Positions 56,574 to 61,986 of a stretch of 64,000 bases of DNA are shown piece by piece. Location: NCBI GenBank assembly GCA_018239895.1, contig JAFEGL010000003.1, positions 418,212-482,211 of the forward strand, written 5' to 3'. The number at the start of each line of letters is the position of its first letter. The stretch's first letter is position 1. A program made the translations under genes and the position numbers. Source of the DNA: Verrucomicrobiota bacterium. Lineage in GTDB: Bacteria; Chlamydiota; Chlamydiia; Chlamydiales; SM23-39. The notes beneath the pieces were generated by a model. It saw only the letters and a program-made list of their open reading frames with translations, searched no databases and was not told the origin of the DNA.

Positions 56574-56951
56574 TTATTTACGAGTTAAGATTCTTTCTAT
56601 CATTCCCCTGCAATTTTCTGGAAATGCAGCCTGTATTTCTATACGTTCTCCAGATTTCCAGTTGTTTGTTACCTCCATCAATATACCCAAATAAATCCTT
56701 TGATTCTCGACATTACTATTCATCGGAACATCACCATGTTTGAGTAGAATACGCTCATCGCTAAGCCAACTTAAATCTATTAAGCAATCAAAAAGAGCAT
56801 CCCAGTTTCCTCCAAAATAATCAGGAAAAAATAATCCCAACGATATTGCATTTAACAGGTCTTTTTTTTCTTTAATGCCACTCTTTATTTCCACTGTTAT
56901 ATCATATTTTCCAATCTCTTTTGGATCTTTGAAATAAATAAATTTTTTCAT
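56574..56951 (-). CDS. Barstar-family RNase inhibitor (immunity protein of the Rhs toxin)
   Basis: Start re-assigned to the ATG at 56951, 1 nt after the Rhs stop codon. DLLNAISLGLFFPDYFGGNWDALFDCLIDLSW matches barstar [29 protein letters not shown]. Confidence 0.8.
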   Translation of the reverse strand: MKKFIYFKDPKEIGKYDITVEIKSGIKEKKDLLNAISLGLFFPDYFGGNWDALFDCLIDLSWLSDERILLKHGDVPMNSNVENQRIYLGILMEVTNNWKSGERIEIQAAFPENCRGMIERILTRK

Positions 56952-56952
56952 T

Positions 56953-59900: not shown

Positions 59901-61986
59901 AATCGAACTCTCCCGTTGTTGTTTGGCCGAGAGGGTTTGTTTCAGAGAGGATGTTCCCTTGTTCATCGACGACGCGGGTGATGGCGTAAGCGAATTGATC
60001 GTCAGATCCGTAGATCTCTTCCCGCTCGATGTGGCCGATTTTGTCGTAGTGAAGGTGGGTCTTTTTGAGCAGCTTTTCTTGAGAACCTTCGCAATAATAT
60101 TCTTCGATCCACTCAGGACAGTGGAGGAATGGGTGTTGTTGGCGCAGGCGAAGGCGCGTGATGGTTCTTTGAGTGACTCCAGATAGGTTGTCTGGGCTGT
60201 CAGATTCTCCGTCGTCGGAGATTTTCCCGATCAAATTATAGCAGTCGTCGTAAGTGTAGAATTCACGAAGGAGAATTTGGCTTCTGTCCTTCGTGTATTT
60301 AGCAGCGAGGAGATTCGTTTCAGGGAGATATTGATAGACGAGAACTTTTCCGTTATCGGTCTCTTCTTGAAGGAGTAGGTTTCTGCCGTCTTGAGAATAT
60401 TTGCGCCGGATGGTGTATTGTTCCTGCAACCCTTGGCCCGAGAGGTTCCCTTCAAAGGTCTCTACTTCGGGGTTCCCAAAGGAGTCGCATTCAAAATTTT
60501 TGGCGTAAAGAAGGGCATCGTCGCCATCTCTATATTCGAGCCTCTTGAGATGTTGTTGATCAGACCAAAAGATGAGTTTTTGCTTAATTAGCTTTCCTTG
60601 CGGATTGAACCATCTGATTGAATCGGGGAGAAATCTCGGAGTGAAATGATACTCGATTCTTGAGCCGTCGATCCGGGTTGCGGTGGTTTGCCCCTCTTTT
60701 TTATCGGCAATAGGCGGGTCGTAGCTGATTTTATAGAGAGGCAAATATGAGTTGTTGGAACCAACTGGAAATTGGATAGAATCGACCCTCCGAGGCGACC
60801 CGCTATACGTGCACGAATAGGGAGGTTCTCTGGCAGAATGCGATTCCATCTGCATGAACTGATCATATCCCAATAATTCCGAGCGATAGAAGGGAGAACT
60901 AACGGAGGTTAGGATAGGTGGAAATACAATGGGATCTTTCTTTATATGTATTCTAGGTCCATCAGGATGTTTATCGTCGTAGACGATGTCTTCACACTGC
61001 CTTGCCTCCTGCCTATACTGAGCTCTTTCTCCGGCATTTGTTGTGATTGATAGAATCGGATTGGTTCCAAGAACCAAGCTTCCATCTATTGAGATCGATG
61101 AGTAAATGTGACTTTGCTTCGGATCTTGGCTTTCAACTCGGATGAGTCTAAAGCCATCCATTTTATTGTTCTCCAGATCATCGCCATAAAAATATCGGAG
61201 AGTTTTTCCGTTCGGAAGCTTCTCTATGCAGAGAGTATAATATTCGCTATAAGCTACTTTCTTTTTTCGCCCATGGATAGAGTGGCCCGTAGGAAAGTAG
61301 TATCTGACGGTTCCATCTGGGCAATATACGATGTATCTATGATTGCTTCTGAGCAGACGTATATTTCTAGGATCGTTCATTCCACTGGGAGATTCATCGG
61401 AACCGTTGCTCATTCCATAGGGAAGGTCAGCTAAAAAAGAATCCCTTTCAGAAACCGAAAATGCTAAAACGGCTCCGTTTGAATCGGCAAGATAGACGGT
61501 TGCATATTCATCGGGCTTGCTAGGCTGCCCTTGAGCTTTTAGCCAATGGTGAGGAAAAGCCCGCCAACCGGTCCGGCTTTGGATGAGATTGTCTTGTAAT
61601 TCTTTCCAGTAACTATACTTTCTTTCGAAGTACAAAAGCTTAGCTGCTCGATCATTTCGTATCGCGTCGCGCCATTGGGTTTCGCTCATCCAGCCCTTCG
61701 CTTCTTGGGGGACGAGACCAGGGGGAGGAAGGGGAGCGGGAACTGTGGCAGGAATGTAGGATCTAAAAAGAGAGACATCTTGAGCCCCTCTGGCAACTAA
61801 GTCTGTTTTACTGGAGACAATTTGACCGCTCAACGGACTGATGACGCCTCCAATCAGCAGATCGTTCGATCCGTAGAAAGCAGCGATTTGATCGGGTGTA
61901 GATGGAGATAAAGAACTGCCCTCGAAATCAGATGCAGCCAAGAGCGATGTTGAAATCAGCAGGAGCAGGCAGAGGCGTTTGAACAT
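56953..61986 (-). CDS. Rhs/YD-repeat polymorphic toxin precursor with a Sec signal peptide
   Basis: - Signal peptide MFKRLCLLLLISTSLLAASD.
- Opening segment GGVISPLSGQIVSSKTDLVARGAQDVSLFRSY.
- Dozens of YD repeats (DPEGRVTSYFYDGGGRL, DPMGLQTIDTYDALGQI, FTYDGLHRRLSK).
- Rhs core end YYGRRYYDPSLGRWLTPDPAGFTDGMNLYAFVHNDPLTHFDEYGL. Confidence 0.9.
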   Translation of the reverse strand: MFKRLCLLLLISTSLLAASDFEGSSLSPSTPDQIAAFYGSNDLLIGGVISPLSGQIVSSKTDLVARGAQDVSLFRSYIPATVPAPLPPPGLVPQEAKGWMSETQWRDAIRNDRAAKLLYFERKYSYWKELQDNLIQSRTGWRAFPHHWLKAQGQPSKPDEYATVYLADSNGAVLAFSVSERDSFLADLPYGMSNGSDESPSGMNDPRNIRLLRSNHRYIVYCPDGTVRYYFPTGHSIHGRKKKVAYSEYYTLCIEKLPNGKTLRYFYGDDLENNKMDGFRLIRVESQDPKQSHIYSSISIDGSLVLGTNPILSITTNAGERAQYRQEARQCEDIVYDDKHPDGPRIHIKKDPIVFPPILTSVSSPFYRSELLGYDQFMQMESHSAREPPYSCTYSGSPRRVDSIQFPVGSNNSYLPLYKISYDPPIADKKEGQTTATRIDGSRIEYHFTPRFLPDSIRWFNPQGKLIKQKLIFWSDQQHLKRLEYRDGDDALLYAKNFECDSFGNPEVETFEGNLSGQGLQEQYTIRRKYSQDGRNLLLQEETDNGKVLVYQYLPETNLLAAKYTKDRSQILLREFYTYDDCYNLIGKISDDGESDSPDNLSGVTQRTITRLRLRQQHPFLHCPEWIEEYYCEGSQEKLLKKTHLHYDKIGHIEREEIYGSDDQFAYAITRVVDEQGNILSETNPLGQTTTGEFDSKGRPIRSVSFSGRLEKKMDYDLQGRLFKQEEIAKDGISHTALRKYNALSHCTDEIDYLGHSTHFEYDPITGKPTHIESPSIPSLETKSTPVVSSSLFDALGRINSKTDPNGHTTTTAYNAYGKPTQIIYPDGSTHKFIYYLDGKLKTSIDPLGVQTSYSYTPLDDISSKTIATPQGEILSQETYLYKARQLTQHTDPEGRVTSYFYDGGGRLIAEQKGTERTEWTYDSLNRIRSTKTVNGSLLAITEYDLLNRPIEERKEDLSQNLLSQVFYEYDADGNKSKITTWSEQQKVDEHFAYDSFHRLVRHEDSLGFATTTAYDENHSNNLGQRVLRKIETDPMGLQTIDTYDALGQIASTEKRTDQTLNLERFYRDASSNLTTQISDIYASNQLSRSVTTQWEYDSMNRKILLTEAFTKKTRYTYTLKGQLFQTIKPDGVILERTYDNLGHLKTLASSDLTCLYSYTHNRVGQLLELKDLFTQKSTSRTYDTHGRLIRETLANGLTVSNAYDDANRRTRLTLPDQSSIEYRYGPAHLLEVIRYDSNGNPILKNNSDFKYDALDRLVEVTSDDTHVHFTYDGLHRRLSKTTSTGSTNSNQLYLYDGQNEIGSFGATQELRILGTTPHAEIGATVAIELGQKLYVPLHDLSGNITFLYTPDGTFTESYRFTAFGEELVSSSINPWRFSSKRKDPETSLVYYGRRYYDPSLGRWLTPDPAGFTDGMNLYAFVHNDPLTHFDEYGLLDYGQYTWSAQDRSQGQLGLGYGLMNGAFNALSFSNALIHCPLAPFTSYQSGTFNWAMPSSYHTINSFLDKTHGQINNRFFGRADLSNDFFQSGRIGGELVGDRLFGGVNNRLMGAALNASTWTLGKLSSLRLNISDFVKKIQSRNFLQFGSKDYKSIPQAFNELKPTLERIEKGIKFPHRNDGSFFMNREGLLPKKHKEYYREYVHHTPGTNGPGPKRVVIGEQGEIYYTPDHYATFHKVK
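56956..57681 (-). other. Variable C-terminal toxin region of the Rhs protein (242 aa), ending in a barnase-type RNase domain
   Basis: It begins right after the demarcation motif PLTHFDEYGL (consensus PxxxxDPxGL). The last about 90 aa, FFMNREGLLPKKHKEYYREYVHHTPGTNGPGPKRVVIGEQGEIYYTPDHYATFHKVK, align with barnase FSNREGKLPGKSGRTWREADINYTSGFRNSDRILYSSDWLIYKTTDHYQTFTKIR. Confidence 0.8.

Follow-up and report, generated by a model that had tools for sequence, protein, structure and literature searches.

The Rhs toxin gene and its Barstar partner

In this study, we analysed a stretch of 64,000 nucleotides (the window) from contig JAFEGL010000003.1 of a metagenome-assembled genome (MAG) titled "Verrucomicrobia bacterium", and focused on two adjacent genes on its minus strand. 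The first, an open reading frame (ORF) at 56953..61986 with its stop codon at 56953-56955, encodes an Rhs protein of 1,677 aa (JSS32_02360 in NCBI). The second, at 56574..56951 (coding 56577..56951, stop 56574..56576), encodes a protein of the Barstar family. The sequence itself shows in which order the domains stand, which catalytic and contact residues are present, how tightly the two genes are coupled and where the boundary of the toxin cassette lies. We regard it as fairly probable that the two genes form a bicistronic module for a polymorphic toxin and its immunity protein in a chlamydia-like bacterium, and that this module would act independently of a type VI secretion system (T6SS) or of TcA and would serve in competition with bacteria.

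The Rhs protein begins with a predicted Sec signal peptide of the signal peptidase I (SPI) type, as an earlier note on this DNA had claimed. The signal occupies residues 1-19 (MFKRLCLLLLISTSLLAAS; 61930..61986, minus strand), and the N-terminus MFKRLCLLLLISTSLLAA/S-D shows the n-h-c pattern that such signals have. A cleavable signal of this kind is expected of the Sec-dependent polymorphic toxins, which Zhang et al. place in a "T2SS" class. Signal peptides of this protein and of its relatives described below were assessed by eye from that layout. Residues 20-1435 (57682..61929, minus strand) form a shell of YD/RHS repeats that includes the Rhs-associated core and was delimited from Pfam and NCBIfam matches, PDB sequence matches and AlphaFold2 (AF2) modelling. 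The YD repeats reported in the earlier note were recovered as eight stretches of Pfam RHS_repeat (PF05593, E=4.4e-49) and six stretches of NCBIfam YD_repeat_2x (TIGR01643, E=2e-28). In the PDB, the shell and core matched RhsP (8h8a), RhsA (7q97), a teneurin-like protein and TccC. Neither Pfam nor NCBIfam gave a match in the N-terminal region of the protein. The AF2 model of residues 1-430, of moderate confidence (predicted local distance difference test score, pLDDT, 71), resembled only generic Rhs, teneurin and Tc shells, with low template modelling (TM) scores, and no additional N-terminal domain could be named from it. Both results agree with the claim that the protein has no PAAR-like N-terminus. 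Against NF041261, the equivalog of E. coli-type RHS element core proteins, the protein scored 116.5 bits, which is below the cutoff of 2000. Judged by its sequence, it is an Rhs protein but not a member of that equivalog.

The Rhs-associated core itself lies at residues 1362-1435 (57682..57903, minus strand; TIGR03696, 82 bits against a cutoff of 32.5). It terminates in ...NDPLTHFDEYGL (over a longer stretch, ...DPAGFTDGMNLYAFVHNDPLTHFDEYGL) with the leucine at residue 1435, and the tail that follows is 242 aa long; the earlier note had described both the core end and the tail length in the same way. The terminal motif fits the P....D..G(L) cleavage motif, and the putative cleavage site reads ...NDPLTHFDEYG/L. 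The candidate aspartyl autoprotease pair is D1408/D1431. The 23 residues between them resemble the spacing in cleavage mutants named in PDB titles (Tse15 D1369N/D1391N and TccC3 D651A).

The tail ends in a guanyl-ribonuclease toxin domain of the RNase Sa type, a branch of the N1/T1/barnase superfamily, at residues 1594-1677 (56956..57207, minus strand). Pfam Ribonuclease (PF00545) matched residues 1600-1676 with 50.2-53.1 bits against a cutoff of 24. A phmmer search of the PDB returned RNase Sa2 (E=5e-18), Sa3 (E=1.5e-17), Sa (about 3e-14) and barnase (E=1e-4), the last by alignment of tail residues 183-242 with barnase 52-110. The tip is about 47% identical to RNase Sa, Sa2 and Sa3. In the AF2 model of the tail, which was built on 46 sequences, the last 84 residues or so (tail residues 160-242) reached a pLDDT of 89-97, and in Foldseek the modelled tip matched RNase Sa2 with a TM score of 0.78 and a root mean square deviation of 1.3 Å, compared with a TM score of 0.5 for barnase. 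Sequence and model thus both suggest that the tip is closer to RNase Sa, Sa2 and Sa3 than to barnase. The earlier note had aligned the last 90 residues or so of the tail with the catalytic half of barnase. The relationship was confirmed by the PF00545 match, but the domain is a complete RNase Sa-type enzyme of about 84 aa and extends beyond that half.

The tip was aligned with 117 homologous toxin tips as well as with RNase Sa and barnase, and individual residues were compared. E1639 stands at the place of the general base (Sa E54, barnase E73), R1654 at that of the phosphate-binding arginine (Sa R69, barnase R87) and H1669 at that of the general acid (Sa H85, barnase H102), beside which Y1670 is also kept. 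The N-R-E loop for guanine recognition is present as N1624-R1625-E1626. The catalytic Glu, Arg and His are nearly invariant among the homologous tips. P1650 occupies the position of Sa R65, as Pro does in 93 of the 117 tips. The activity predicted from these residues is that of a guanyl-specific endoribonuclease. Tips of the RNase Sa type are common on Rhs, HINT and CdiA-type toxins across many phyla. Two metagenomic proteins that were found with the tail (P0211 and P0212) have an unusual multi-RNase architecture, in which about 400 aa comprise a signal peptide and three tandem RNase Sa-like domains.

The protein encoded next to the toxin is 125 aa long and has no signal peptide. Its ORF starts one nucleotide past the toxin stop, and this junction (TAA-A-ATG) indicates co-translation. 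Pfam Barstar (PF01337) matched it with 58.3 bits (cutoff 23.4, E=8e-16) over profile positions 9-87 of 96; the phmmer match to barstar in the PDB was weak (E=0.0096). The contact residues of barstar, Tyr29, Asp35 and Asp39, correspond to Y45, D51 and D55, all within PDYFGGNWDALFDCL. The protein is also 37-38% identical to Barstar ORFs that follow RNase-tipped Rhs genes in two other loci (L063 and L064). The earlier note was correct on the family and position of this ORF, and its figure of 126 aa has to be corrected to 125. All of the profiles that it had named for checking (RHS_repeat, TIGR03696, PF00545 and PF01337) matched above their curated cutoffs. A longer immunity ORF of 166 aa with a GTG start (57074) was considered and dropped, since it would overlap the toxin gene by 122 nt and since the homologues are 123-129 aa long and start just past the toxin stop. 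Promoter and terminator scans around the locus gave nothing better than shuffled sequence.

The chlamydial Rhs family and its exchangeable tips

The same 64-kb window encodes SecY, RpoA, GAPDH and Lnt. Its RpoA is 79-84% identical to proteins from Chlamydiales/Chlamydiia MAGs, and the named close homologues of the Rhs protein outside the source MAG all belong to Chlamydiota MAGs. Because of this RpoA identity and these Rhs relatives, we call the host chlamydia-like, as the earlier note had done from the letters of the DNA. The phylum label under which the MAG was deposited (Verrucomicrobia) looks wrong. Several related MAGs titled Verrucomicrobiae, Acidobacteriota or Deltaproteobacteria also contain members of this chlamydial Rhs family and may be mislabelled or mis-binned.

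The family consists of about 40 proteins of 1,400-1,840 aa (E <1e-96), after which a gap follows to generic Rhs proteins at 1e-43. When one genome per species was scanned with the N-terminal 430 aa as the query, 62 loci were obtained, often two or three in a genome and nearly all from entries titled Chlamydiae, Parachlamydiales, Waddliaceae, Simkaniaceae, Rhabdochlamydiaceae or Anoxychlamydiales. The scan did not recover the window's own genome, whose sequence differs from both search patterns, and the nearest locus to it, L001, is 43% identical. Among 42 family members, all those with a complete N-terminus have a predicted Sec-type signal peptide followed by the conserved stretch STPEQIA..LIGGxISPLSGQ, and no other domain stands before the shell. 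In one Waddliaceae MAG (CAVYRW010000004.1, locus L047), the Rhs ORF at 9950-14416 ends right at the core motif and has no tail.

The first 40-50 residues of the tail are strongly hydrophobic in most members (hydropathy 1.5-2.4) and lead into a tip of about 100 aa. The tails concerned are those behind the Rhs core in L003, L006-L009, L013-L016, L018, L020-L022, L024, L028, L029, L033, L039, L043, L046, L048, L049 and L060. The segments are of several types, including a glycine-zipper-like one (GGYLLGLGEIxLGG), and they recombine independently of the tip. The tail in the window lacks the hydrophobic segment of the family. A small ORF without a signal peptide follows each tip at a distance of -37 to +24 nt, and the immunity family encoded there co-varies with the type of the tip, not with the type of the hydrophobic segment. 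Extra or orphan immunity paralogues also occur, and one immunity family alone accounts for 26 ORFs in 12 loci. Pfam recognised six of 24 related chlamydial tails, four as Ntox24 and two as Ntox37. Variable tips with matching immunity genes and orphan copies are the hallmarks of interbacterial polymorphic toxin systems.

The protein might instead be a secreted or surface nuclease for nutrient scavenging or adhesion, in which the Rhs part is mainly a surface or outer-membrane structure and the RNase acts outside the cell, with no entry into another one. The Sec signal fits such a role, and the barnase-barstar pair of Bacillus likewise consists of a secreted RNase and a cytoplasmic inhibitor. In 2009, RHS family proteins were reported as a cluster of predicted chlamydial outer-membrane proteins (PMC2811131). 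However, the tip is placed behind an intact autoproteolytic Rhs core, which encapsulates its cargo in solved homologues, and the unrelated tips of the relatives (Ntox24, Ntox37), each with a specific immunity gene, fit toxins. We therefore consider a scavenging nuclease very unlikely.

A crude scan showed no uninterrupted long ORF in about 27 of the 62 related loci. These loci could be pseudogenes, or they could reflect frameshift errors of long reads. The gene pair in the window might itself be a decaying or inactive relic at a locus no longer used. This count would be consistent with that, and so would the change of R65 to P1650, by which the tip lacks one of two arginines that RNase Sa has in its active site. 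Such decay is, however, very unlikely here. The 5-kb Rhs ORF and the immunity ORF are both intact, Pro at this position is the norm of the family, and the Glu, Arg and His residues are conserved almost throughout. RNase T1 also works with a single Arg. In addition, a barstar gene that is retained and tightly coupled to the toxin gene implies an active toxin.

Between the core and the RNase lies a linker or pre-toxin module of 158 aa (residues 1436-1593; 57208..57681, minus strand), which is rich in Gly, Ser, Asn, Phe and Leu and nearly free of acidic residues. With a maximum hydropathy of 0.79 over 19 residues, it does not resemble a transmembrane segment. It gave no Pfam match, and its AF2 model was of low confidence (pLDDT 44-60), with no fold assigned. 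When the linker alone (residues 1436-1593) was searched exhaustively against 1.84 billion cluster representatives, only five other clusters at 50% identity (P0331-P0335) were found, each of which bears a different tip. Two of these clusters include the part upstream of the linker, and there the core ends in the same manner (P0331, ...NPLTHFDEYGLLD; P0335, ...QPLIHFDEYGLW). Because the linker is shared by so few clusters and each carries a different tip, the tail is modular, with a rare, lineage-restricted linker and an exchangeable tip. The closest relatives that share the shell are P0002 (55% identity), L001 and P0003. P0002 and L001 have the linker behind the core as well, but the tips of all three are unrelated. 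Overall, the homologues cover 74-86% of the query, that is, the shell only, and have different tails.

The base composition follows the same division. The G+C content is 0.49 in the shell, 0.59 in the core, 0.418 in the linker, 0.381 in the RNase and 0.325 in the immunity gene, and returns to 0.49 in the next intergenic region. The first drop falls exactly on the boundary between core and tail. Such a fall in a tail and its immunity gene is the usual mark of a swapped-in toxin cassette. This break, and the relatives that combine the same shell and linker with other tips, show that the tail and the immunity gene were gained by C-terminal displacement onto a chlamydial Rhs scaffold.

Export, neighbourhood and possible targets

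The Sec pathway would export the 1,677-aa protein across the inner membrane by means of its N-terminal signal peptide. By homology with other Rhs proteins, the YD repeats would fold into a shell around the C-terminal 242 residues, and the aspartyl autoprotease of the core, with D1408 and D1431 as candidate residues, would cut after ...DEYGL1435. The fragment thus released would consist of the low-charge linker of 158 aa and the RNase Sa-type guanyl endoribonuclease of 84 aa. As a module of membrane entry, the stretch that joins core and tip is the strongest candidate; this is the weakest step of the scheme, and for the non-hydrophobic linker in the window it is drawn by analogy only. In the cytoplasm of a target cell, the RNase is expected to degrade RNA, with R1654 binding the phosphate and with acid-base catalysis by E1639 and H1669, as in its homologues. 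The co-translated barstar homologue of 125 aa would stay in the cytoplasm of the producer and, like barstar, plug the active site of the RNase. The producer would thereby be guarded both from its own toxin, should this fold before export, and from that of sibling cells. The most likely use of such a system would be competition between chlamydiae, or with other bacteria, in a shared host cell.

We searched the window for genes that could deliver the toxin. No T6SS, PAAR, VgrG or Tc domain was found in the scanned ORFs, which included every ORF of at least 150 aa between 41.5 and 64 kb, and the Pfam scan gave no match to the SpvB/propeller families of TcB (PF03534 and PF12256). A search for conserved neighbours in the 62 related loci yielded immunity families only and no T6SS or Tc gene. 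Environmental chlamydiae are not known to have a T6SS. Abby et al. described a chlamydial system that resembles the type II secretion system (T2SS) and is tied to protein secretion, but falls outside their T2SS model. This T2SS-like system is a candidate for crossing of the outer membrane.

Directly upstream of the Rhs gene and on the same strand, two tandem paralogous genes encode porin-like outer-membrane proteins (62089-63093 and 63101-63994, minus strand), one of them with a weak Phenol_MetA_deg match. We considered this pair as a dedicated outer-membrane partner of the Rhs protein and dropped the idea, since a homologue adjoins the Rhs gene in L028 only, and there on the opposite strand. 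On the other side of the locus, a 524-aa protein (54763-56337, plus strand) has a membrane segment at its N-terminus, a stretch rich in Pro and Ala, and a weak AAT/C45-peptidase-like domain, and a 608-aa protein (52817-54643, minus strand) has an AAA/STAND-like NTPase core and hydrophobic segments; no specific family was matched by either. The genes at 44852-52681 appear to form a methionine-salvage-like group (HAD hydrolase, class II aldolase, IF-2B/MtnA and PNP_UDP_1 phosphorylase). This group is interrupted by a gene for a 912-aa ankyrin-repeat protein (48157-50895, minus strand; Ank_2 E=9e-53), and proteins of this kind are a hallmark of host-directed effectors in amoeba symbionts.

The toxin could also be directed against the host. 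Its shell would then work like the BC cocoon of Tc toxins or like RhsT of P. aeruginosa and bring the RNase into the cytosol of an amoeba or another eukaryotic cell, with Barstar needed only for protection before export. Several observations are in line with this possibility. The organism is chlamydia-like and presumably intracellular, and the ankyrin-repeat protein nearby is typical of host-directed effectors. RNase Sa3, called the closest solved relative, is a cytotoxic microbial ribonuclease according to its PDB title, and a barstar gene fits any target. Zhang et al. argued in 2012 that the toxins of intracellular bacteria are mostly host-directed (PMC3482391). On the other hand, no component like TcA or TcB was found, neither as SpvB/propeller domains in the scanned ORFs nor as a conserved neighbour in the 62 loci. 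The tips of the family are highly polymorphic and each has its matching immunity gene, while the orphan immunity copies and poly-immunity arrays make sense only if the toxin comes from other bacteria. Moreover, the same type of RNase tip is common on antibacterial toxins of the CdiA, HINT and T6SS-type Rhs classes. A role against the host is thus unlikely in our estimate, although it deserves more weight than a scavenging enzyme or a relic.

Bacterial targets are modestly favoured because of the polymorphic tips, the co-varying immunity genes and the orphan immunity copies. Several points weigh against a module for bacterial competition, however. The domain order and the residues are known here from sequence, whereas activity, secretion, autoproteolysis and target are predictions, and the signal peptide was assigned by visual inspection. 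With its folded shell of about 190 kDa, the protein would be a demanding cargo to move across an outer membrane. Chlamydiae are obligately intracellular, so that their chances of contact with competitors are limited. Barstar by itself does not point to bacterial targets, because any RNase toxin needs an inhibitor. The proposed role of the linker in entry is speculative, because this linker is not hydrophobic, unlike the corresponding segment of most members, and its model is unreliable. Finally, Zhang et al. noted that immunity genes are mostly missing from intracellular bacteria, apart from rare exceptions, and that these bacteria aim their toxins mostly at the host (PMC3482391).

A broader proposal can be made for the family as a whole. 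It might constitute an Rhs system, spread across the Chlamydiota and dependent on Sec, in which cytoplasmic toxins are delivered by a built-in, exchangeable entry segment between core and tip, with no need of T6SS or TcA. The system would be used in warfare among chlamydiae, or between them and co-resident symbionts, inside host cells. The entry segment would be a hydrophobic or glycine-zipper helix pair in most members and a rare low-charge module of 140 aa in the subclade of the window, and would carry the tip across the target membrane. We offer this proposal tentatively and regard it as doubtful in its full extent.

Prior work and comparison with known systems

Rhs proteins of environmental chlamydiae have long been annotated. 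Zhang et al. tabulated Tox-Barnase in chlamydiae in 2012, with RHS repeats among the associated features and Imm-Barstar as its partner (PMC3482391). "Rhs-like hypothetical proteins" are among the largest orthogroups absent from the genomes of Ca. Parilichlamydiaceae and Chlamydiaceae (PMC6171736), and the promoter of a Waddlia gene annotated as rhs9 is bound by the developmental regulator Euo (PMC4989314). Our literature search found no functional study of chlamydial Rhs toxins. Together with an equivalent locus in Ca. Protochlamydia phocaeensis, these reports indicate that the surprise expressed in the earlier note was overstated. The locus is real and was interpreted correctly in the earlier note. 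It is fairly ordinary, one more Rhs-RNase-barstar module of a well-known class, and would not be found unexpected in the field.

The locus is of value chiefly because it gives access to a phylum-wide family of chlamydial Rhs toxins with predicted Sec signals that has so far gone unstudied. The swappable tips, cytoplasmic immunity genes and orphan copies of this family point to conflict between bacteria, which Zhang et al. (2012) had thought rare in such a niche. The family would be a natural case of Rhs toxin delivery by a diderm without a known injection machine, a problem that it shares with WapA and the teneurin-like proteins. Since no other cargo of the family is as well understood as the RNase-barstar pair, this locus may be a convenient handle for the study of export, processing and entry.

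The cargo pair has its counterparts in RNase Sa, Sa2 and Sa3 and in barnase with barstar. They share with the window pair the fold, the catalytic Glu, Arg and His, the N-R-E loop and an inhibitor with Y, D and D contacts, and barstar also inhibits RNase Sa (PDB 1ay7, which was among the matches). However, RNase Sa and barnase are free-standing secreted enzymes, whereas the domain in the window is the tip of an Rhs protein and has Pro at the position of Sa R65. Barstar is 89-90 aa long, compared with 125 aa for the immunity protein of the window.

T6SS Rhs effectors (RhsA of P. protegens, 7q97; RhsP, 8h8a; Tse15; Rhs of S. bongori) gave the best PDB matches to the shell and core (E 1e-33 to 1e-22). 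They resemble the window protein in the autoprotease motif of the core, the polymorphic tip and the immunity gene. They have a PAAR, prePAAR or VgrG-binding N-terminus, no signal peptide, and vgrG or chaperone genes nearby; the window protein, in contrast, has a predicted signal peptide, and no such domains or neighbours were found in the scanned ORFs. The TcB-TcC cocoons of Tc toxins likewise combine a YD shell with an Rhs core aspartyl protease and enclose an unfolded toxin, and the core in the window matched TccC2, TccC3 and YenC2. However, Tc toxins need TcA and the beta-propeller of TcB, have neither a signal peptide nor an immunity gene and act on eukaryotic targets. The TcA and TcB parts were not found in the scanned ORFs or as conserved neighbours of the related loci, and the likeness runs through the generic shell and core only.

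WapA/WapI of Bacillus subtilis and the bacterial teneurin-like proteins have several features that are also seen or predicted in the window locus, namely a Sec signal, a YD/Rhs shell that encapsulates a polymorphic C-terminal toxin, and a downstream immunity gene. No dedicated injection machine is known for such toxins, and delivery "remains to be elucidated" (PMC13018210). WapA differs in that it belongs to a monoderm organism and has wall-binding domains, and the teneurin-like proteins differ by their TIP, TTR, FN-plug and NHL domains and their lipoprotein or S-layer anchors. In the window protein, unlike in both of these, the signal peptide leads almost straight into the shell, and there is an outer membrane to cross or to sit in.

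Two other chlamydial loci come close to the one described here. In Ca. Protochlamydia phocaeensis (FCNU01000026, L064), an Rhs fragment with an RNase Sa-type tip is interrupted by the contig end and followed directly by a Barstar ORF of 129 aa, as in the window. L063 (GCA_040384245.1, 2364-5043) contains an orphan Rhs core with its RNase, behind which Barstar, Imm40, DUF7660 and several small ORFs make up a poly-immunity or cassette array, with an AlpA-like regulator beside it; the window differs in having a full Rhs gene. The linkers of both loci are unrelated to that of the window. The order of parts is otherwise the same: a core that ends in ...D.YGL, a linker, an RNase tip 54-61% identical to that of the window, and a Barstar ORF of 123-129 aa.

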